DNA from: a virus | Lineage: Duplodnaviria > Heunggongvirae > Uroviricota > Caudoviricetes > Peduoviridae | Virus record (IMG/VR): IMGVR_UViG_2563366824_000006 | Direction: 5' to 3' (one strand) | Length of the DNA stretch: 37,453 nucleotides | In this document: positions 3,593 through 29,470 of the stretch, one piece after another | How the letters are laid out: each line of letters starts with the position of its first letter | How positions within the stretch are numbered: the stretch's first letter is position 1 | Position numbers and translations under genes: made by a program | Notes under the pieces: generated by a model | Database searches by the model: none | Told to the model about the DNA's origin: nothing | What the model saw: the letters and a program-made list of their open reading frames with translations, nothing else

Positions 3593-6040
3593 TTAACCGT
3601 CATGCATCATGCTGGCACGGGCGCGCGCACGTTTATCCCGCTCGTATTTTTCGAGCGCATCCTGTAACTGGCGGTCAAGCTGTGTCTCCGGCGCAGTACC
3701 GCCCGTCAGGCTGATGTGATATTCGTTTTTACTCTGGTCCACATAAGAGCGGCCAGCCGGTGCCGTGACCGGCTGATAAGCCTGATAGCCTGCATAAGAG
3801 CTGGTCGCCGGAATATAACCACCGGTGCCATACGTGGCGGCATTAGTCCTTGCGGCGGTCTGGTCAAGTGTGTCTGACTCTTTGTTGATAACACCGAGTT
3901 TTTCCAGTACCCAGTCAATACCATTGCGCAGTTTGTTGAACGCATTAAGCGGCAGCATCAACGCGTCAGCCAGTGCCTGCCCGAACATGACGCCCGTGTC
4001 ACGGCAACGGTTCAGGGTGTCCTGTGTGGCTTTAACCGGGGCAATCAGGTTTTTAAACCACTGCCACGAGGCCTGTAACTTTTCGCCCAGCCAGTCAAAC
4101 ACCGGCTTAAGTGGTGTGAACAGTTCCCCCACCGGCGCAAATGCCGCTTTCAGCCCTTCCACCACACCGCCAAAGAATGCGCTGACAGGCTCCCAGTATT
4201 TACGGATAAGCAACGCCCCGGCGACAATAGCGGCCACCACAGCCACAACCGGCCAGCTAATCGCCCCGATGGCGGTCATAACAGCACTGCCAACCGTCGT
4301 GAAGATTGCCCCCATTGCGCCTGCTGCCGCGATGATGGCATTAATGCCGGTGATAACCGGCCAGGCTACAAGACCAATTGCACCGATGATGCCAGTAAGC
4401 GCCAGTGCGCCACCGACAATGAGGCCGATGGTTGACGCCAGTGATTTGTTTTTCTGGATCCAGCCGTCGAGTTTTAACACATACTTTGTGGCCGTCTGTG
4501 TGAGCTTACGCAGTGCGCCTTCCTGCTGGTCAAACAGGTCAGTCCCCACCGCCTCATAAGCGGACTGAAACTCCTTAAAGTCACCGCCGAGGTTGTCCTG
4601 CATGATATTTACCAGCTCGGCGGTCTTCCCGTCTGAGGCTTTAAACGCAGCGGTCAGTTTGTCCAGCTTTCCGGTTGAGGCGGCTGTCATCAGCACGGCG
4701 GCGGCTGAGCTGGCCTCCTCCCCGAAAATAGTTTTCATGTATTCAGCCTGCTGGGCAGTACCGAGCCGGTTTTTCTCAAAACTGGCCTGCATTTCTTTCA
4801 GAATGGTAAATACTGGTCGGGTATTCCCCTTGCTGTCTGAGGTTTTCACGCCAAGCTCTTTGAGTGCATCCCATGCTTTTCCCGTCGGTGCCTGCAGGCG
4901 GCTTAACACGGCACGGCTTCCCGTCCCCGCCATTGAACCTGTGATTTTTGCATCATGCAGCGCCCCGACCATTGCGGCGGTTTCTTCAATGCTGACACCG
5001 GCATTTTTTGCCACAGGTGCGGCATAGGTCAGCGCATCGCTCATGCCGTCAAAATCAGCGGCGGTTTTGTTCATCGTCATGGAGAGAACATCCCCGATAT
5101 GAGCGACCTTATCGTTTGAAAGCTGAAAGGCGGATTTCATCCCCATCAGCAGGGCGGCGTTTTCTTCCATCGTGCGGCGGTTCGCCTGTGCCATATTCAG
5201 CGTGACCGGCGTTGCCGCCTGAATGGCATCAACATCCCCACCGGCTTTCGCAATGATAATCTGTGCACCGGCTGCATCATCCGCCGAGGCGGCGGTATTG
5301 TCGCCGAGCTGGCGCGCCTGTTTGCGTAGTGCGGTCATTTCGGCGGAGTCTTTTGCCACTCCGAGCACGGCCTGCAATTCTGAGTTTTTCTGCGCAAACT
5401 CATAACCGGGCATCAGCAGCTTAACTCCGGCCATCGTTCCCGCCGCCGCAATCCCCACACCGGCAGCACCCACTGAGGCCATATTTCCGGCCAGTTCCTT
5501 TCCGGCCTGATAACGCTGTTTTACTGCGTTAAGTTTTGCCTGTTGTGCACTGACACGCGCCAGCGCGTCGCGCTGTCGGTTAAGCTGTGCGGTGGTTTCA
5601 CTGATACGGTTTTTCAGTCCCTGCTCATCATGTGCAAGATTGCGGGTATTAATTCCCACAGCGGCCAGTTCCCGCTGCTGGCGTTTAACGGAATCTGTCA
5701 GGCGGTTATATTTCGCCTGTAAGTCCTCCACCGCACGCTTTGCGGATTCCAGCACTTTCGCCTGAGCACGGGTCGGACGTTCGGTGTTTTTAAACTGTGT
5801 GGCAAGGGCTTCGGCTTCCTGCCGTGCCTTTTCAAGTGCATGACCAGTCACGGCGAGCTGTGCACTGGTCTTGCGGAATCCCTCAATACGGGATGCGTGA
5901 CCGTTCAGCTCGCGCAGTGATTTTTGTGTTTCCCGGATATCCCCCGACAGCGACTTACTCGCTGTGCGGATGGATTTAAACGGGCGGGATGCCTGGTCAA
6001 CAGCCCTGAGCAATACCTGTAATTTTACATTGTTACTCAT
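3593..6040 (-). CDS. T: Tail tape measure protein T
   Basis: 815-aa ORF with coiled-coil N-terminal part and Ala/Gly-rich hydrophobic middle typical of tape-measure proteins; position and length match P2 gpT. Confidence 0.9.
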   Translation of the reverse strand: MSNNVKLQVLLRAVDQASRPFKSIRTASKSLSGDIRETQKSLRELNGHASRIEGFRKTSAQLAVTGHALEKARQEAEALATQFKNTERPTRAQAKVLESAKRAVEDLQAKYNRLTDSVKRQQRELAAVGINTRNLAHDEQGLKNRISETTAQLNRQRDALARVSAQQAKLNAVKQRYQAGKELAGNMASVGAAGVGIAAAGTMAGVKLLMPGYEFAQKNSELQAVLGVAKDSAEMTALRKQARQLGDNTAASADDAAGAQIIIAKAGGDVDAIQAATPVTLNMAQANRRTMEENAALLMGMKSAFQLSNDKVAHIGDVLSMTMNKTAADFDGMSDALTYAAPVAKNAGVSIEETAAMVGALHDAKITGSMAGTGSRAVLSRLQAPTGKAWDALKELGVKTSDSKGNTRPVFTILKEMQASFEKNRLGTAQQAEYMKTIFGEEASSAAAVLMTAASTGKLDKLTAAFKASDGKTAELVNIMQDNLGGDFKEFQSAYEAVGTDLFDQQEGALRKLTQTATKYVLKLDGWIQKNKSLASTIGLIVGGALALTGIIGAIGLVAWPVITGINAIIAAAGAMGAIFTTVGSAVMTAIGAISWPVVAVVAAIVAGALLIRKYWEPVSAFFGGVVEGLKAAFAPVGELFTPLKPVFDWLGEKLQASWQWFKNLIAPVKATQDTLNRCRDTGVMFGQALADALMLPLNAFNKLRNGIDWVLEKLGVINKESDTLDQTAARTNAATYGTGGYIPATSSYAGYQAYQPVTAPAGRSYVDQSKNEYHISLTGGTAPETQLDRQLQDALEKYERDKRARARASMMHDG

Positions 6041-7047: not shown

Positions 7048-8238
7048 TTAATTGCTGTTAACCGAAGTGACCAGATTTGCCAGGTATTTATCGGTAATAC
7101 GCTGGCGCAGGGTCAGGTTTTCAAGAGGAGGCACCGGTGTATAGTCGTAGTCGATATACAGTTTTCCGGCCTTGAGGGTTTCCGCATCGTTGGATTCTTC
7201 GCTGAACCAGCAGGTCGCATCCACGATATAGCCGTTTGTTTTCAGCTCACGGAATTTGGCATTGATGCCGTCAACGATGTCGCGAATCAGCGTTGCGGTG
7301 ATGGGCTTGTCCACCGCCCACATGTGCGCCTCAGCCATCGTGTCGGCCAGCACCTGCGCGGTGCGGGTGTAGTTTTCAAAGAGGAACAGCGGGTCATCAG
7401 AGCAGGTACGGTTACCCCAGAAGCGGAAACCGTCACGGCGAATCAGCGTTGTGACGCCTGACTCGTTAAGCAGGTCAGCATCGGTGCCGGACTCCTGCAA
7501 ATCCCAGAATACGGACGCGCTGATGCCGGTAACACCGTTCACCCCGACGTTGGACAGCGTTTTATGCCAGCCCTGCTCCTGGTCGATTTTAGCGCGCAGA
7601 CCCAGCGCACGGGCAGTGGCATACGCGGTGGCGGTGGTACTGGCGACCGTATCCCATGCGAGGAAATCCGGCCAGATGACCATCAGCTCACGCTGGCTGA
7701 AATTCTGGCGGTAGGCTTTCACCTCGGAAATGGTTTTACAGCCCCATGCGCTGATATACCCGAAAGCGCGCAGCTTCTGACAGACTGATGCCAGTGCAAC
7801 AGCCACCTCTTTGGTGTCCAGTCCCGGCACACCGAGAATACGCGGTTTAACGCCGGTTACCGACTCTGCCGCCAGCAGGGCTTTCAGTCCGGTGTACTGA
7901 CCATTTTCGTCGGTGGTGCCGATGATATTGGAAACGGTCTGCGCGAGTTTCGTTTCCTCGTCGTCGCCGGTGCCGTCTTCCACACGCACGACAACGGTGA
8001 CCGGTTTTGACTGGTCGGCGATGGCCTGCAACGATGCCGCCAGCGTGCCTTTTTTACCGGCCTTTGCAATTGCGCTCTGCACATTGGTAATCAGCACAGG
8101 TTTATTGAGGGGGAAGGTTTCCGCATCCGCATCGCTGGCCGTACAGACCATGCCGACAACGGCAGTGGATACGGTGGAAATGACGCGGGTGCCGTCGTTA
8201 ATCTCCAGCACCTGCACGCCATGATGATAGTCACTCAT
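7048..8238 (-). CDS. FI: Contractile tail sheath protein FI
   Basis: 396-aa ORF; position and size match P2 FI; GGAG Shine-Dalgarno about 9 nt upstream. Confidence 0.9.
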   Translation of the reverse strand: MSDYHHGVQVLEINDGTRVISTVSTAVVGMVCTASDADAETFPLNKPVLITNVQSAIAKAGKKGTLAASLQAIADQSKPVTVVVRVEDGTGDDEETKLAQTVSNIIGTTDENGQYTGLKALLAAESVTGVKPRILGVPGLDTKEVAVALASVCQKLRAFGYISAWGCKTISEVKAYRQNFSQRELMVIWPDFLAWDTVASTTATAYATARALGLRAKIDQEQGWHKTLSNVGVNGVTGISASVFWDLQESGTDADLLNESGVTTLIRRDGFRFWGNRTCSDDPLFLFENYTRTAQVLADTMAEAHMWAVDKPITATLIRDIVDGINAKFRELKTNGYIVDATCWFSEESNDAETLKAGKLYIDYDYTPVPPLENLTLRQRITDKYLANLVTSVNSN

Positions 8239-8330: not shown

Positions 8331-8361
8331 AGATAAAGAAAAGGCGGGCAATTCGCCCGCC
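8331..8361 (-). terminator. Intrinsic terminator downstream of the cargo gene, upstream of FI
   Basis: Stem ggcgggc / gcccgcc (8343-8349 / 8355-8361), followed on the minus strand by TTTTCTTTATCT. Confidence 0.55.
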
Positions 8362-8601
8362 TGTCCTGATTTGTACTCACTCATTTTCCGACTGACAATT
8401 TACATAGCCCAAACGCTATCAATTCTGACAGTCTGCTTTGAGCGAGGAGCAGACCTTCACGCTTTTCGCTGTTGAGTGACATGAATTATTAAAGAGCATT
8501 ATAAAACTTCACTTTTTCTAATTTCAATGCTTTATTAAAGTCAGCGACATTCAGGATTATCAATTCAATATTAATATACCATCAGCATTATATAAGAGGT
8601 A

Positions 8602-9606
8602 TTATGCTAACCATTTTGGATGCTCTTTATAAACATTATTAAACCACTCGGTCATTTCAGGTGAGTTCGTATCCTTTATCCAAGTTAACTCAAAGTCATC
8701 TCCCATAGATGCAAATATTGATTTCAATTGAGTTATGATTAAACCATAGTAAAATCCAAAAGTTTTTTCTTCATCCTCATTGACTAATGATTCAATATGA
8801 CAACTGAGAATAAATCGAACTCGTGCCGCCGTTGAGGGATGTGTCGATTGAAAATGTTCATGGGGTGATAAGCCATCAGAAAGTTTGAAGTAGCACAGTA
8901 TTAATAGCAATGAAAATGCAATTCCGCCTTCCTTGCTGCTATAAAAATCAAGCAAGTTATTAAGATAAGATGCCTTCTGATCAAATGCAGACTGTACATG
9001 TTTTTTTACAATATTAAGAGCAAAACCATCTGCAACTAATTCTCTTGCGTGGCTTGATATTATTTCTGCGCTATTGATTTTTTTATGTCCTAAAACATCA
9101 TCAAAGATAGTGTCAATAGATTGCTTTTTTGCTCGGTCGCCATGTTTATTAATGAAATGGCCTACTTCGTGACTAACTATAAACAGCATTAGACAATCAA
9201 GAATAAACATAAATAAGTGTGATTCGGACTCACTTTCCTCTCTTGTCTCATTGTTAAACCCAACAAATGGATTAGTAACGAGATGCAAGTCATAAAAGTT
9301 TAAATTAGTACTTTTCCCTGTTATCATCCCTGACCGAAAAATCAAGTCAGATAACTTACATAGTCTATCAAATGTGCCATAAGACATAAATATCAATTTT
9401 TCATCATAAATAATGCCGCATTGAAAATGTGAGTTGGTTGTAATGCAAAAATCCAGATCTAATTTTCGAACAGAGTCCATGTATTTACTAAAAAACGGCA
9501 GTACGAGACCATTATCTCTATCATTTATAAAATCATAGATAAGCCCCAATTGATTCTTTGAAAGAATTTCATTGATTTCATTAAGTTTTATTTCAAATCT
9601 ATCCAT
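8602..9606 (-). CDS. Cargo gene at the Z/fun position: putative zinc metallopeptidase with M48 (HtpX/Ste24)-like motifs and an N-terminal domain of about 135 aa of unknown function
   Basis: 334-aa ORF, AT-rich. Motifs read in the translation: HEVGH, then RELVADGFA (the ExxADxfA third-ligand motif of M48 peptidases), then STHPSTAARV (the THPxxxxR motif). AGAGGT Shine-Dalgarno upstream. No membrane helices evident, so probably soluble. Confidence 0.6.
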   Translation of the reverse strand: MDRFEIKLNEINEILSKNQLGLIYDFINDRDNGLVLPFFSKYMDSVRKLDLDFCITTNSHFQCGIIYDEKLIFMSYGTFDRLCKLSDLIFRSGMITGKSTNLNFYDLHLVTNPFVGFNNETREESESESHLFMFILDCLMLFIVSHEVGHFINKHGDRAKKQSIDTIFDDVLGHKKINSAEIISSHARELVADGFALNIVKKHVQSAFDQKASYLNNLLDFYSSKEGGIAFSLLLILCYFKLSDGLSPHEHFQSTHPSTAARVRFILSCHIESLVNEDEEKTFGFYYGLIITQLKSIFASMGDDFELTWIKDTNSPEMTEWFNNVYKEHPKWLA

Positions 9607-9760
9607 AATTAGAACCTCTTAATTAAAATTTTAAATAATCCGCTTAAGTAGCTATGGAGATGTAATTCTAATACTCAATCCACTCATTCAATGGAAAGAT
9701 TAGCATTACTTTAACCGCACTTTTGGACTTGACTTACTTCCCTTAAAGCTTCTGGGCACT

Positions 9761-9802
9761 ATGTTAGTAATGTCCGCTCTTCGCACGCAGCGGACATTGC
9801 TA
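9761..9802. repeat. Hairpin-containing repeat, copy 1 (15-17 bp stem, 10-nt loop)
   Basis: ttagtaatgtccgct (9763..9777) pairs with agcggacattgctaa (9788..9802) with one G-T wobble; the 42-nt segment matches 10859..10900 at 28 of 42 positions by my manual alignment. Confidence 0.6.
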
Positions 9803-9922
9803 ATAGCGGTCTATGTGAAACACGGGGAGTAGGTTAGTTTTAGCGTTAAACACAATAAGAGCACGATGAAGTATCAAAAAGGAAGCATTGCATAGATAAT
9901 TTAGGCAAAAACAGAGCTTAAA

Positions 9923-10774
9923 TTACATATCATTCGCTATCAATTCGGTTGAGAGAACCCTTGGAATCAAGCTACTTTTTGAACCATACTTTATATGCAG
10001 AAAGTCCATCATCTTTTCAACATCACTTTCATGCTCTACAATGACATATTTAATATCCTTATGTGAAAAGGGTAACCTGTCATCATCATAATATTCGTTA
10101 TATTTTCTCTTGCCATCTTGAGTTGATATATTTTTCGAAGCAGCGATCACTGGTTTTCCAATTGATTTTTCTATATCTGGAACAAATCGCCACTCCCTCT
10201 CATCTGCAAAAATATAGTTAGGTTTCTCCTGACCATTGCGTCGTTTCAAAGTTGCCTGGTAATTTTTCATATATCGCAAAGGATCTACAATTTTCTTGTA
10301 ACTAAGAATCGCCGAGTCATATTTCCGCTTTGCATTAGTTAATTGAGATGTTGTTCCTGAAGATTTTATTTCGTCCAAATGCTTTAATAACTTATTAACT
10401 TCTGCTTTTAAACGCCTAATCTCTAGATTATAATTATCAAAAACAGAAGAGTGCTTGGACATGTAAATTACTGGATTAAGTCCATTTTCGTTTGCCCAAT
10501 CTTTTGATAATCCTATGCCATAATGGCCATAACTTTCAGTATGCTGGGTAAGCTGTGTTAGCCTGATATCACAAAATGAAACCATCGGTATACCGAAATT
10601 TCTATTCGTGCTCTGGCCTTGTATAAACTCTCTAGCGAAAGAAATTCGAAAATAACTTGAGTCAAGTATCTCAAATAAGGTATCTAACTTTTCAGTAAAA
10701 TGAAACAAGGTCGTTGGGTATAAGCTACGCGACATAATGATCATCCATAATATGATGTATAAACTAAGTATCAT
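9923..10774 (-). CDS. Cargo gene at the Z/fun position: putative abortive-infection (Abi-like, possibly AbiGi-family) protein
   Basis: 283-aa ORF, AT-rich. N-terminal LFHFTEKLDTLFEIL ... GIPMVSFCDI ... YGHYGIGLSKDWANENGLNPVIY resembles Abi-family proteins as I remember them; family assignment unverified. True start may be an internal Met (ATG at 10744-10742 or 10735-10733), since the first 13 codons encode an odd hydrophobic peptide and lack a Shine-Dalgarno sequence. Confidence 0.5.
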   Translation of the reverse strand: MILSLYIILWMIIMSRSLYPTTLFHFTEKLDTLFEILDSSYFRISFAREFIQGQSTNRNFGIPMVSFCDIRLTQLTQHTESYGHYGIGLSKDWANENGLNPVIYMSKHSSVFDNYNLEIRRLKAEVNKLLKHLDEIKSSGTTSQLTNAKRKYDSAILSYKKIVDPLRYMKNYQATLKRRNGQEKPNYIFADEREWRFVPDIEKSIGKPVIAASKNISTQDGKRKYNEYYDDDRLPFSHKDIKYVIVEHESDVEKMMDFLHIKYGSKSSLIPRVLSTELIANDM

Positions 10775-10858
10775 AAATCAAGGTTATCAGTACTTACCAT
10801 ACATCAGCAAGCGGAATTAGCGATAGCGGCCTGCTCCTCATTAATCAACACTAAGAGC

Positions 10859-10900
10859 TGTTAGCTACTTCCGCTCCTGGCACAGAGCGGACTGTCAGAT
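10859..10900. repeat. Hairpin-containing repeat, copy 2 (degenerate copy of 9761..9802)
   Basis: Core tccgctc / gagcgga stem (10870-10876 / 10885-10891); an alternative 9-bp stem ggcacagag / ctctgtgcc (10879-10887 / 10910-10918). Confidence 0.55.
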
Positions 10901-10953: not shown

Positions 10954-11481
10954 TTATTGCGGCATTTCCGGCCATTCAGGATTTGCAGGATCCACACGGC
11001 TGACCAGAACACTGTAGCGTTCCCATGCTTCCAGTCGGCTACGCTCCTCATCTGTTGCCATGTTCAGCCTGACAGCGCGCTCCAGTGGCAAAATCACGGA
11101 TTCAGCATCTGCAAGAAGTCTGGCTTTCCGGTTTTCTGCCTGCTGCTGCAATTCCTCTGCCGTATAAATGCGTTTAATCACTGTACCGTCCTTAAACATC
11201 CAGTTCCCTGAAATGTCCGCCCGTCGGTTAGCAGTAATATCCGCCACTTCAACAACACTTAATCCATCCGGTCTGATAGCTGTCACATCCTTTTCCACAT
11301 AGCGGATGATATTATCTTTGTCGTACGCTATTTTTAGCGTGTCATCAGCAAAATACTTTTGTTCTTCGTACCAGTTCTTACCATCTTCTGAAAAAAACCA
11401 GACAACATCAAAGTCTTTTGTCAATTGATATTGTTCAACCGTTTTTGGATTACCCGCCGTAATATTTTTTAAATGCTGCAT
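10954..11481 (-). CDS. G: Tail fibre assembly protein G
   Basis: 175-aa ORF directly downstream of H; size and sequence consistent with P2 gpG. Confidence 0.85.
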
Positions 11482-16750: not shown

Positions 16751-17536
16751 ATGGTCAGCTATAATGTGACTAATGTGTGGGAGCTAATCGTCTTGTATCT
16801 TTTGGTCTTTGTAGTATTAGCATTTTTTAGCTTTGGTAAAAGTAACCTTATGAGGCTTATTGCACATTATTTCAAATTTGGATATTCAGATAAAAAATTA
16901 AAAAGACTGGACCGCGAGTGGCGCGACATTCAACTATTTAAAATAATTAACGGAATCAATGTATCAGGCATCAAAGATGTGAAAATGATACAGCAGGGGT
17001 TGATTGATGGAAAACTAAAAACATCGGATTTTTTCCTTACTCGCTTCTGGGGAGACATAACAGAACCGCCATGCATCACAAAAACAATGAGTGCAGTCCT
17101 GGCCGGAATTCTTTATATTACCTTCGCATGTTGCATACACAACGAGCAATCTGCCATAGTAGAGGATGCCATAGCCATACCATATAAAAATATGATGTAC
17201 CATGTTTATAATGACAAGGTTCTTTTGTTCTCCGACAATAAAACAGATAAGTTCTATAAAGCTTTTAGCATTGCCGATTGCAAGAGACTGCAGAACACTT
17301 TTGTAACAGACACACTTCCTGCAATCGCCTGCAATAAGCTCTTACAGCTAAACGAGGAGGACTCCAAATGGTTAAGTCAGGAGATTAAAGATAATAACAG
17401 CCACAGAAAAACATTATTAATAATATCCCTCGTCTATTTCACTTCAGGTCTGGTTATACTTCTGTCATATACAAAATTCCTTTACGCCAATAAAAAAGTT
17501 GTAGAATACAAATCATCAAATAAAAACCACTCATAA
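16751..17536 (+). CDS. Cargo gene at the orf30 position: membrane protein of unknown function (three predicted transmembrane helices)
   Basis: 261-aa ORF on the opposite strand to the flanking late genes; AT-rich and Lys/Asn/Ile-rich; hydrophobic segments near residues 10-28, 112-128 and 230-248; GGAG Shine-Dalgarno at 16741-16744. Confidence 0.6.
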   Translation: MVSYNVTNVWELIVLYLLVFVVLAFFSFGKSNLMRLIAHYFKFGYSDKKLKRLDREWRDIQLFKIINGINVSGIKDVKMIQQGLIDGKLKTSDFFLTRFWGDITEPPCITKTMSAVLAGILYITFACCIHNEQSAIVEDAIAIPYKNMMYHVYNDKVLLFSDNKTDKFYKAFSIADCKRLQNTFVTDTLPAIACNKLLQLNEEDSKWLSQEIKDNNSHRKTLLIISLVYFTSGLVILLSYTKFLYANKKVVEYKSSNKNHS

Positions 17537-27262: not shown

Positions 27263-29470
27263 ATGAAATTAAAACTCAAAAACGTAACAAGCTATCATAA
27301 AGAATATTTTACTGAGTTAGATTTATCCAAAAAAATAAACATATTGTATGGACAAAATGGTTGTGGAAAATCTACCATATCAAATTATTTTTACAATCCT
27401 AAAGACACCGCCTATAAGGAATGTGTATGCGAACCCATCGATAATTATCGAACCCTAGTCTACAACTCAAAATATATAGAAGATAATTTTTATAATGCAA
27501 AAGAGCAAAAAGGTATATTTACCCTCAGTCAAAAAAATGCAGAAATTGAAAAAATACTATCTGAAAAAGAAGAGCTAAACAAATCACTAGCACATCAGCA
27601 TAAAGAAAAAAAAGAATTTATCGAAAAACTCCATGAAGCGAAAAACAAAAAAGAGCAAGAATGCATAAATTCCATATGGAATAAGACCAAAGACATAAGA
27701 AGTTCAGAATTAAAACAATTAATGAAAGGTCAAATAGGAAGCAAAGCCACTTTCTATTACCATCTAAAAAAGTATACTCCACAAACTGATATTGATATAA
27801 AATCATTAATACAATCTTATAGCAAACTTCTCGAGTTTAAAGGAAAAGAAATACCTCTGATAACTCCTTATAAAGGATATGTTTTATCTGAAGAAACTCA
27901 AAAAACATTATCCACACCAATTATTGACTCTAGCAACAGCTATTTATCTGAAGCAATAAAAGAGCTACAAAATATTGATTGGATTAAACAAGGCAAAGAG
28001 CTATATTTAAATGGAGAAATTTGTCCATTTTGCCAAAGGGACACAATAGATGATAATTTTATTAAAGCCATTGAATCTATCTTTGATGAAACATACTCAA
28101 GAAAAGTAGATCAAATACAACAAATAAAACTATCTTATGATAATGCCATTAAAAATCATCATGAAGAAATAAAGAGTAACATTTTATCATGTGAGGTGAT
28201 AAACCAAGACGAAAAAGATAAAAGCCTTTCATATGTTAAGGCATTAGAAACTATTGCAGAAAAAAACATCAAATTATTGGATAATAAAATAGAGAATCCA
28301 TCTATAAGCATTGTGCTGGAGTTTGAAAAGTCGATAGAGGAAAAACTATTAGAAGATATAGAACAATACAACAAAAAAATTAACGAGTTCAATGACAAAG
28401 TAAAAAGATTTAATAATAGCGAAATAGATATTCGCGAAAAGATGTGGGCAGCAATCAGAGACTTATGTAGCGCGGAATTTGAAATACTATCAGACTGCGA
28501 AAGAAACTTTCAAGAAAAATATGAAAACGCTGCATCCTTCATGCAGGAAATAAAAAGAAAAGAAGAGATCAACACAAATGAAATCAATGAACTAAGAAAT
28601 AAAACATCAAGTGTAGATGCAACAATAGATGCAATAAACTCACGACTTAAATTTCTTGGCATCTCTGGTTTTAGCATTGATAAACACGCCGAACTCAAAG
28701 ATAAGTATATAATATCCCGCGATGGAAACAATAGAAAACAAGATGTATATCGGTCATTAAGCGAAGGTGAAAAAACATTAATAACGTTTCTATATTTTTT
28801 AGAATGTTGCAAGGGTAAAACAAATGAAAATGATACTGATATGCGTGATAAACTCATAGTTATAGATGATCCTATATCAAGTTTATCTCAAAACTATGTT
28901 TTCGACATAGCATCCATGATCCATCATGACATAATTGAAAAAGGCATTTCATCAAAAATAATAATCCTCACCCATAATCTTTATTTCTTCCATGAGTTAA
29001 TAAAACTCGCCTCTAAAAAAGGAATAAATTTTAAACGTGACTACTTTCTTGGCAGAATAAACAAAAATGAATTTAGCACCATTAGTGCTATAGATAAAAA
29101 AAGTGTGCAAAATGAATACCAATCCCTTTGGCAAGTATTAAAAGATGCAAAAGAGAAAAAAATCAACAAAATAATAATCCCCAATATTATGAGAAATATA
29201 CTTGAGTATTACTTTGCATTTGTTCATAGAACTGACGCATTAGAGGCAAAGCTTACTGAATTAACAAATGATGAAAATAACAGCCATTTCCGTGCCTTTT
29301 ACAGATATATAAACAGAGGCTCTCACTCCGACGCAATAAACATAACAGATATGGGCGATATTGAACCTGAGAAATACTTAGAACTCTTGCACAAAATATT
29401 CAGAATGACTGGTGATGAGAAACATTACTTAACAATGATGGGTGAAGAAGAGGTAAATGTTACCGCTTAG
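27263..29470 (+). CDS. Cargo gene at the tin/old position: RloC/PrrC-like ABC-type ATPase with Rad50-like CxxC zinc hook and putative C-terminal HEPN/anticodon-nuclease domain
   Basis: 735-aa ORF, very AT-rich. Walker A GQNGCGKST (27347..27373); long coiled-coil region with CPFC (28022..28033) at its midpoint; signature-like LSEGEK; Walker B LIVIDDP; H-loop ILTHNL; C-terminal R-x3-E (MRNILEYY) and R-x6-H (RYINRGSH) motifs. Confidence 0.55.
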   Translation: MKLKLKNVTSYHKEYFTELDLSKKINILYGQNGCGKSTISNYFYNPKDTAYKECVCEPIDNYRTLVYNSKYIEDNFYNAKEQKGIFTLSQKNAEIEKILSEKEELNKSLAHQHKEKKEFIEKLHEAKNKKEQECINSIWNKTKDIRSSELKQLMKGQIGSKATFYYHLKKYTPQTDIDIKSLIQSYSKLLEFKGKEIPLITPYKGYVLSEETQKTLSTPIIDSSNSYLSEAIKELQNIDWIKQGKELYLNGEICPFCQRDTIDDNFIKAIESIFDETYSRKVDQIQQIKLSYDNAIKNHHEEIKSNILSCEVINQDEKDKSLSYVKALETIAEKNIKLLDNKIENPSISIVLEFEKSIEEKLLEDIEQYNKKINEFNDKVKRFNNSEIDIREKMWAAIRDLCSAEFEILSDCERNFQEKYENAASFMQEIKRKEEINTNEINELRNKTSSVDATIDAINSRLKFLGISGFSIDKHAELKDKYIISRDGNNRKQDVYRSLSEGEKTLITFLYFLECCKGKTNENDTDMRDKLIVIDDPISSLSQNYVFDIASMIHHDIIEKGISSKIIILTHNLYFFHELIKLASKKGINFKRDYFLGRINKNEFSTISAIDKKSVQNEYQSLWQVLKDAKEKKINKIIIPNIMRNILEYYFAFVHRTDALEAKLTELTNDENNSHFRAFYRYINRGSHSDAINITDMGDIEPEKYLELLHKIFRMTGDEKHYLTMMGEEEVNVTA

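Follow-up and report, generated by a model that had tools for sequence, protein, structure and literature searches.

The Lit protein of the Escherichia coli element e14 (Peptidase_U49) cleaves EF-Tu upon recognising it in complex with the major capsid protein of T4, combining sensor and effector in one protein (PMC13228613, PMC9712102). The lactococcal AbiG system, an experimentally validated abortive infection (Abi) system, consists of two components, AbiGi and AbiGii. The AbiGi family has been placed in the ADP-ribosyltransferase (ART) superfamily (PMC12522546). Proteases also occur in modules with congruent protease and effector phylogenies, in which trypsin-, caspase- or subtilisin-like proteases are coupled to MBL, alpha/beta-hydrolase, Pepco or EACC1 effectors (Evans et al. 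2025, 10.1101/2025.11.14.688446). The Z slot of P2-like phages is already known from the literature as a variable locus with anti-phage genes. Here we examine the cargo of this slot, Z/fun, in a P2-like prophage (Peduoviridae; IMG/VR record IMGVR_UViG_2563366824_000006), of which the whole stretch of 37,453 nt, hereafter the window, is identical to a prophage of E. coli O166:H15 JNE21-009. The slot contains two co-oriented genes, one for a Lit-like zincin metallopeptidase of the M48/U49 clan (8602..9606, minus strand, 334 aa) and one for an AbiGi-family protein (9923..10735, minus strand, 270 aa; the longest open reading frame reaches 10774, 283 aa). An initial annotation had described both reading frames and their families, which our analysis upholds, and had proposed that they form a candidate two-gene anti-phage module, which it does not. 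We consider it likely that the slot holds two independent single-gene cassettes, a solo AbiGi and a Lit-like zincin with putative anti-phage roles, stacked at a shared hairpin repeat.

The proposed pairing was not borne out when co-occurrence was checked. Tblastn searches of all fetched loci with both proteins (E ≤ 1) recovered the two genes together only in 99.7–100% identical copies of this locus (L001, L020-22 and L026), and the pair is kept together in more than 80 near-identical sequences. Context look-up, which took in as much as 6 kb of flank on the contigs, and tblastn at E ≤ 1 showed that AbiGi is absent from 10 diverged contexts of the protease, with identities of 45–85%. These homologs (85% in Enterobacter mori, 84% in Pectobacteriaceae, 81%, 66, 63 and 62% (Pantoea), 51% in Providencia, 48% in Vibrio, and 45%) lie in an Enterobacter chromosome, in an integrase island with AAA_21 and DUF4276, beside SIR2 and DUF87, next to P2-like integrase/CI genes, beyond Ogr at the ends of P2-like prophages, in an apparent Vibrio cassette array and in an island with an AAA_13 gene. 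Reciprocally, the protease is absent from seven AbiGi contexts with identities of 60–91% (91, 90, 88, 77, 68 and 60%), located after gpA in another P2-like phage, in a Pantoea chromosome, beside Mrr/nSTAND3 and at the ends of other prophages. In addition, no open reading frame in 80 AbiGi-family loci from species-representative genomes matched the protease HMM at E ≤ 1, and the neighbours in these loci were mixed (RM methylases, AbiTii, DUF6119 and housekeeping genes). Consequently, 0 of 10 protease contexts and 0 of approximately 87 AbiGi contexts hold the other gene.

The cargo sits in the Z/fun slot, because its flanking DNA matches the deposited 'P2-EC58 proviral Z-region' (AJ512683), with the matches ending at 8445 and 10870. 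Upstream it is flanked by the P2 tail fibre assembly gene G (Caudo_TAP; 10954..11481, minus strand) and downstream by the tail sheath gene FI (Phage_sheath; 7048..8238, minus strand), and it is bounded by inverted repeats like those annotated in the Z regions of P2-EC58 and EC67. The initial annotation had thus placed the two genes correctly, between G and FI and in a known hotspot, but not in putting them inside a late operon: a strong intrinsic terminator of the P2 backbone, 3' of the cargo (8342..8362, minus strand; 9-bp stem with 7 GC pairs and a T-tract; −20.1 kcal/mol, z −5.5), separates the slot from FI. The slot, extending from G to this terminator, presumably lies between two P2 late operons and not within one. 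As had been described, both genes are AT-rich in GC-richer surroundings, with a GC content of 0.328 for the protease gene and 0.348 for the AbiGi gene; the corresponding values are 0.567 in FI and 0.50 across the window. One of 5,426 complete E. coli genomes contains the cargo, and 1,266 contain the flanks.

Three copies of a GC-rich hairpin delimit the cargo. Hairpin A (10857..10899; inverted repeats I1/I2) is at the boundary between the P2 backbone and the AbiGi cassette, hairpin B (9764..9810; 15-nt arms, 93% complementary; −22.4 kcal/mol, z −3.6) at the seam between the cassettes, and hairpin C (8424..8455) at the boundary between the protease cassette and the backbone. A and B share the core TCCGCT-N10-AGCGGA, and C is a diverged copy; A and C form inverted repeats (30 nt, 83%) around the whole cargo, and A and B enclose only AbiGi. 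Two exact matches to TCCGCT-N6-12-AGCGGA are present in the window versus 0.02 expected, one of them at 10870-10891. At A, backbone homology to P2-EC58 stops at 10870 and homology of the AbiGi cassette extends to 10892, and at C the homology to the P2 backbone stops at 8445. In P2-EC58, the annotated 'left inverted repeat' starts with the equivalent hairpin, which makes up its first 22 nt (AJ512683), and the hairpin repeat is probably what Nilsson et al. annotated as inverted repeats in P2-EC58 and EC67.

The 316-bp gap between the genes (9607-9922) is composite. Its AbiGi-side part is the conserved 3' flank of the AbiGi cassette (9789..9903, minus strand), which is 88–94% identical in L023, L025, L028 and L029-31 and travels with AbiGi homologs together with the left half of B. 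The 5' flank of this cassette (10775..10892, minus strand) is 84–89% identical in the same loci, and in five unrelated contexts the similarity of the AbiGi cassette begins and ends at the same two points, which are imperfect inverted repeats. The protease-side parts (9607-9635 and 9686-9735) belong to the conserved 5' flank of the protease cassette (9607..9735, minus strand; RBS AAGAGG) and are 86–90% identical upstream of the E. mori homolog, whose 5' flank opens with a B-like hairpin followed by the equivalent of 9607-9735. The 3' flank of the protease is conserved, together with a C-like element, in L015, L011 and L017. The gap contains a strong hairpin, and the 3' and 5' flanks in it were inherited separately; it is therefore a seam and not the spacer of an operon. 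Since all three junctions (backbone/AbiGi, AbiGi/protease and protease/backbone) fall within hairpin copies, the cargo consists of two cassettes placed end to end, cassette 1 with AbiGi and its own 5' and 3' flanks (~9789-10892) and cassette 2 with the protease (~8427-9763). These alignments demonstrate, at the level of sequence, the anatomy of the cassettes and the independence of the two genes. They also suggest hairpin-mediated cassette exchange at P2 hotspots; as a more remote possibility, the shared hairpin ends might be the mark of a dedicated exchange mechanism by which single-gene defence cassettes move between P2 hotspots, other prophages and chromosomal islands.

In a different P2-like phage (L023, 2741-5176 and 6007-6828), replication gene A is immediately followed by an AbiGi cassette of 91% identity that has the same hairpin ends, so that this cassette is found at the gpA–gpQ hotspot of one phage and in the Z slot of another. 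Further hairpin copies were seen at L035 1875-1896, L015/L016 7210-7230 and L011 ~5790-5830, related copies bounding the same cassettes in unrelated genomes. Each cassette presumably has its own promoter in its 5' flank (10775..10892 and 9607..9735, respectively); a promoter scan yielded 11 sites versus 10.0 in shuffles, with no excess, and no promoter is claimed. A near-consensus sigma-70-like site (TTGAAA-18-TATAAT, 11/12), from a scan whose total count was not above shuffles, lies at 8498-8527 on the minus strand, in the 3' flank of the cassette, 3' of the protease stop and directed toward FI. Searches with Rfam found no credible structured RNA or RNA antitoxin in the cargo.

All three motifs attributed to the protease in the initial annotation are present and are conserved in 109 relatives, aligned down to about 15% identity. 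HEVGH, the zinc-binding and catalytic motif (residues 146-150; 9157..9171, minus strand), contains the invariant H146, E147 and H150; RELVADGFA (residues 188-196; 9019..9045, minus strand) contains the invariant D193 and the nearly invariant E189, a candidate third zinc ligand; and STHPSTAARV (residues 254-263; 8818..8847, minus strand) contains the invariant R262 and the nearly invariant P257. The HExxH motif by itself is not rare, being present in 3.7% of shuffles of the protease sequence. The conservation strongly implies that the zincin is catalytically competent. The Pfam M48 profile PF01435 matches residues 141-266 with a small margin (22.6 bits versus a gathering threshold of 20.3), and the modelled structure adopts an M48-type zincin fold, with fold matches to M48, M13, BepA, ZMPSTE24 and BlaR1. 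A sequence search of solved structures returned marginal M48 matches together with spurious LRR matches. Two helices, around residues 131 and 228, exceed a Kyte-Doolittle value of 1.6 and lie within high-confidence helical regions of the AF2 model, and the equivalent Lit helix is likewise hydrophobic. No confirmed relative was found among the species-representative genomes scanned for the protease family, indicating that this family is rare. Within the M48/U49 zincin clan, the protease thus represents a family that is rare and distinct, although PGAP/RefSeq already names it 'M48 family metalloprotease'.

The protease shares several features with Lit. Both are single-gene prophage cargo, often directly beside an integrase, and both have about 300–330 aa with HExxH near residue 150–160. 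The motifs HExxH, E(R)E.AD and THP....R all align between them (hhalign E 2.5e-4), RELVADGFA with EEREAD of Lit, and STHPSTAARV with NTHPAAYERI of Lit and STHPLTSERI of the soluble M48 member PDB 3c37. As with Lit, the protease is single-gene cargo of mobile elements without an obligate partner, occurring in 10 distinct contexts with no conserved neighbour. Yet BLASTP between the two proteins gives only a 33-residue match, with no detectable similarity in the N-terminal region, and the trigger Gol/gp23-EF-Tu and the substrate EF-Tu are features of Lit; on its sequence, the protease is not an ortholog of Lit. The matches of the protease to the Lit models of NCBIfam and PADLOC are weak, though specific, and precomputed PF10463.16 matches exist for most protease homologs, mostly classed as 'weak'. 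With respect to M48 proteases (HtpX, Ste24 and BepA, and the soluble 3c37), the score is marginal, identity to 3c37 is 17%, and the protease has neither the membrane-spanning nor the TPR architecture of HtpX, Ste24 and BepA. Moreover, these three serve in housekeeping protein quality control, whereas the contexts of the protease are mobile and defence-associated. In a 2026 survey of 1,511 P2 elements, 'Lit' was reported from just one P2-like prophage, possibly but not necessarily the present one.

The genuine lit gene in e14 (L034, 2696-3589) and the protease homologs in L002, L015 and L027 are each the last gene before, and convergent with, the integrase of the prophage or island, a hint that proteases of this class are preferentially carried near att. 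A hidden conserved partner of the protease was sought by comparing upstream neighbours all-against-all, and shared neighbours were found only among Pantoea-lineage loci, none of them AbiGi-like. In this lineage (62–66% identity), an open reading frame of 150-238 aa lies 41 bp before the protease (L002 5421-5960, L003 5508-5960, L004 1076-1528 and L027 2162-2878); it is absent from the window locus and gives a sub-threshold match to the CAP12/Pycsar TIR domain (22.4 versus 24.7 bits). It may be a lineage-specific protease partner in Pantoea-type loci.

The identification of the upstream gene as Abi-like was confirmed and narrowed to AbiGi, by Pfam (PF10899, 7e-31, 108 bits versus a cutoff of 22.4) and by PADLOC, whose AbiGi profile is matched at full length (1e-41, 141 bits, profile positions 18-259 of 260). 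The start at 10774 was not retained: translation most likely begins at ATG 10735, because this start is used by PGAP and nearly all homologs and ATG 10774 is not conserved in the alignment. The motifs LFHFT, PMVSFCD and YGHYGIGLSKDW are all present as described. In the 270-aa numbering, H12-F-T, S53-F-C-D and E179-x-E181 are invariant in the family, and these H, S-x-C-D and E-x-E residues fit ART motifs I (H/R), II (S/Y-x-S) and III (E/ExE). The AF2 model (pLDDT 92) shows a long helical-hairpin insertion at residues 97-155, and no DarG-like macrodomain antitoxin adjoins the gene, two features that set it apart from DarT-type ART toxins. A sequence search of solved structures found no match for the protein. 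PGAP/RefSeq names it 'abortive infection system antitoxin AbiGi family protein', and it does not reach the NCBIfam AbiGI equivalog NF042957 (58.5 versus a cutoff of 300).

Compared with lactococcal AbiG, the upstream cargo protein is a full-length AbiGi-family member and yet constitutes a solo cassette. The downstream protein, 316 bp away, has no AbiGii match in Pfam or PADLOC, in agreement with the earlier observation that the canonical partner is a different protein. Likewise, AbiGii was not found beside the approximately 87 AbiGi relatives examined, and none of 10 tightly or closely linked downstream genes scanned was AbiGii.

The comparative sequence evidence shows two cassettes stacked by recombination at the shared GC-rich hairpin repeat, and we propose that each most likely works alone. 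AbiGi would be self-contained, carrying out NAD-dependent ADP-ribosylation of a nucleic acid or protein target upon infection, with no need for AbiGii. By analogy with Lit, the zincin would be a latent sensor-plus-effector protease that recognises a phage late protein, or a complex of phage and host proteins, during infection and then cleaves an essential host factor, so that the infection is aborted. For both proteins, we infer the anti-phage role, the trigger and the substrate.

Several observations weigh against this proposal. Similarity to Lit is weak (hhalign probability 43%), making a Lit-like mechanism an analogy; the NCBIfam Lit model NF007238 scores the protease at 22.1 bits versus a cutoff of 274, and PF10463.15 gives no match to it even at E ≤ 10, whereas genuine Lit scores 374 bits (Pfam cutoff 23.9). 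Foldseek searches of PDB with the AbiGi model returned nothing significant, so that the ART fold is putative here; the DarT match ranked 60th, behind helical-hairpin matches, and a 2026 review describes lactococcal AbiGi as having no structural hits. A solo AbiGi might be inactive, AbiG being two-component in Lactococcus. Anti-phage protection by either gene is argued from sequence and analogy, and a separate origin does not by itself rule out functional cooperation at this locus.

One or both genes could serve purposes other than defence, as lysogenic-conversion, fitness or selfish (addiction or toxin) morons, or as anti-defence genes, in a permissive slot. This would agree with the classification of both PHROG families as 'unknown function', with the adjacency of some homologs to housekeeping genes and with the results of PADLOC, in which no model calls the protease (best match Lit, E 0.01). 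We nevertheless regard it as unlikely, since AbiGi belongs to an Abi system validated by experiment, since Lit, as the closest characterised counterpart of the protease, is a protein that excludes phages, and since defence-associated surroundings recur for both genes (P2 hotspots, integrase islands with AAA_21/DUF4276, SIR2 and DUF87, Mrr/nSTAND3, RM methylases and AbiTii).

There is little reason to favour a single two-component abortive infection system, in which, for example, the protease would sense infection and then activate or degrade the AbiGi-like protein, or vice versa. In favour of such a system, the two genes adjoin in the same orientation, have a similar GC content and stay together in the near-identical copies; protease–effector modules are common in defence (10.1101/2025.11.14.688446), and P2/P4 hotspots have been reported to meld components into functional chimeras (10.64898/2026.02.27.708500). 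However, the genes do not co-occur outside one clonal locus, the gap between them contains a strong hairpin, their flanks are inherited separately, and each gene has its own conserved 5' flank. The known modules resemble this locus in that a protease gene lies beside a candidate toxic effector in a defence locus, but they show co-phylogeny, whereas the partners here do not co-occur beyond one locus, and they use serine or cysteine proteases with other effectors; the preprint of Evans et al. (2025) names neither M48/Lit nor AbiG. A variant that accepts the separate gain of the cassettes, and has them act now as a functional chimera in this lineage, with the zincin proteolytically licensing the ART-like AbiGi or AbiGi modifying the target of the protease, has in our estimate only a slim chance of being correct. 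It is very improbable that the zincin has a regulatory role of the ImmA/IrrE/CapP type, in which it would cleave a repressor and thereby induce neighbouring genes instead of killing. Although PADLOC gives a weak match to CapP (E 0.027) and Peptidase_M78/IrrE matches 5 of the 109 distant relatives, neither this locus nor the ten homolog contexts have an HTH or repressor gene beside the protease, and M48 rather than M78 gives the best matches of both fold and profile.

Elsewhere in the window, the second classic P2 hotspot, between gpA and the portal gene, has a GC content of about 0.30 and encodes a 735-aa AAA_13 ATPase (27263-29470, plus strand), whose C-terminal region is PrrC-like and which is matched by the PADLOC candidate PDC-S06 (845 bits). 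Together with the cargo of the Z slot, this places candidate defence cargo in at least two hotspots of the prophage. In a Pseudomonadota island, some 860 bp upstream of the protease homolog with 45% identity, lies another AAA_13 ATPase, of 717 aa (L009, 2987-5140). The presence of AAA_13 both there and in the window (27263-29470) is probably a coincidence of defence-island content. A 261-aa open reading frame (16751-17536, plus strand), on the opposite strand to the neighbouring late genes and in a patch with a GC content of about 0.45, has no Pfam or PADLOC match and may be a third accessory insertion, among tail and lysis genes.

Two stacked single-gene cassettes in the Z/fun slot add modestly to what is known, namely a rare and distinct Lit/M48-clan protease family that recurs as solo cargo in defence contexts, and a clade of solo AbiGi proteins, stacked here with the protease at hairpin seams. 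They also carry a lesson for genome scans, in that adjacency within a hotspot is by itself no evidence of a system. Should the zincin be a working exclusion protease, it would represent a second, sequence-distinct family with the one-protein sense-and-kill logic of Lit, whose trigger and substrate would be easily found through escape-mutant and cleavage assays. If the solo AbiGi works without AbiGii, the scoring of the AbiG family in defence annotation would need revising, and the protein would offer a tractable E. coli model for a family of still obscure mechanism. The chimera, if real, would be a new abortive infection pairing of a protease with an ADP-ribosyltransferase, caught at birth. 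Finally, seams located inside shared hairpins provide a concrete and testable picture of how cargo is swapped and stacked at P2 hotspots.

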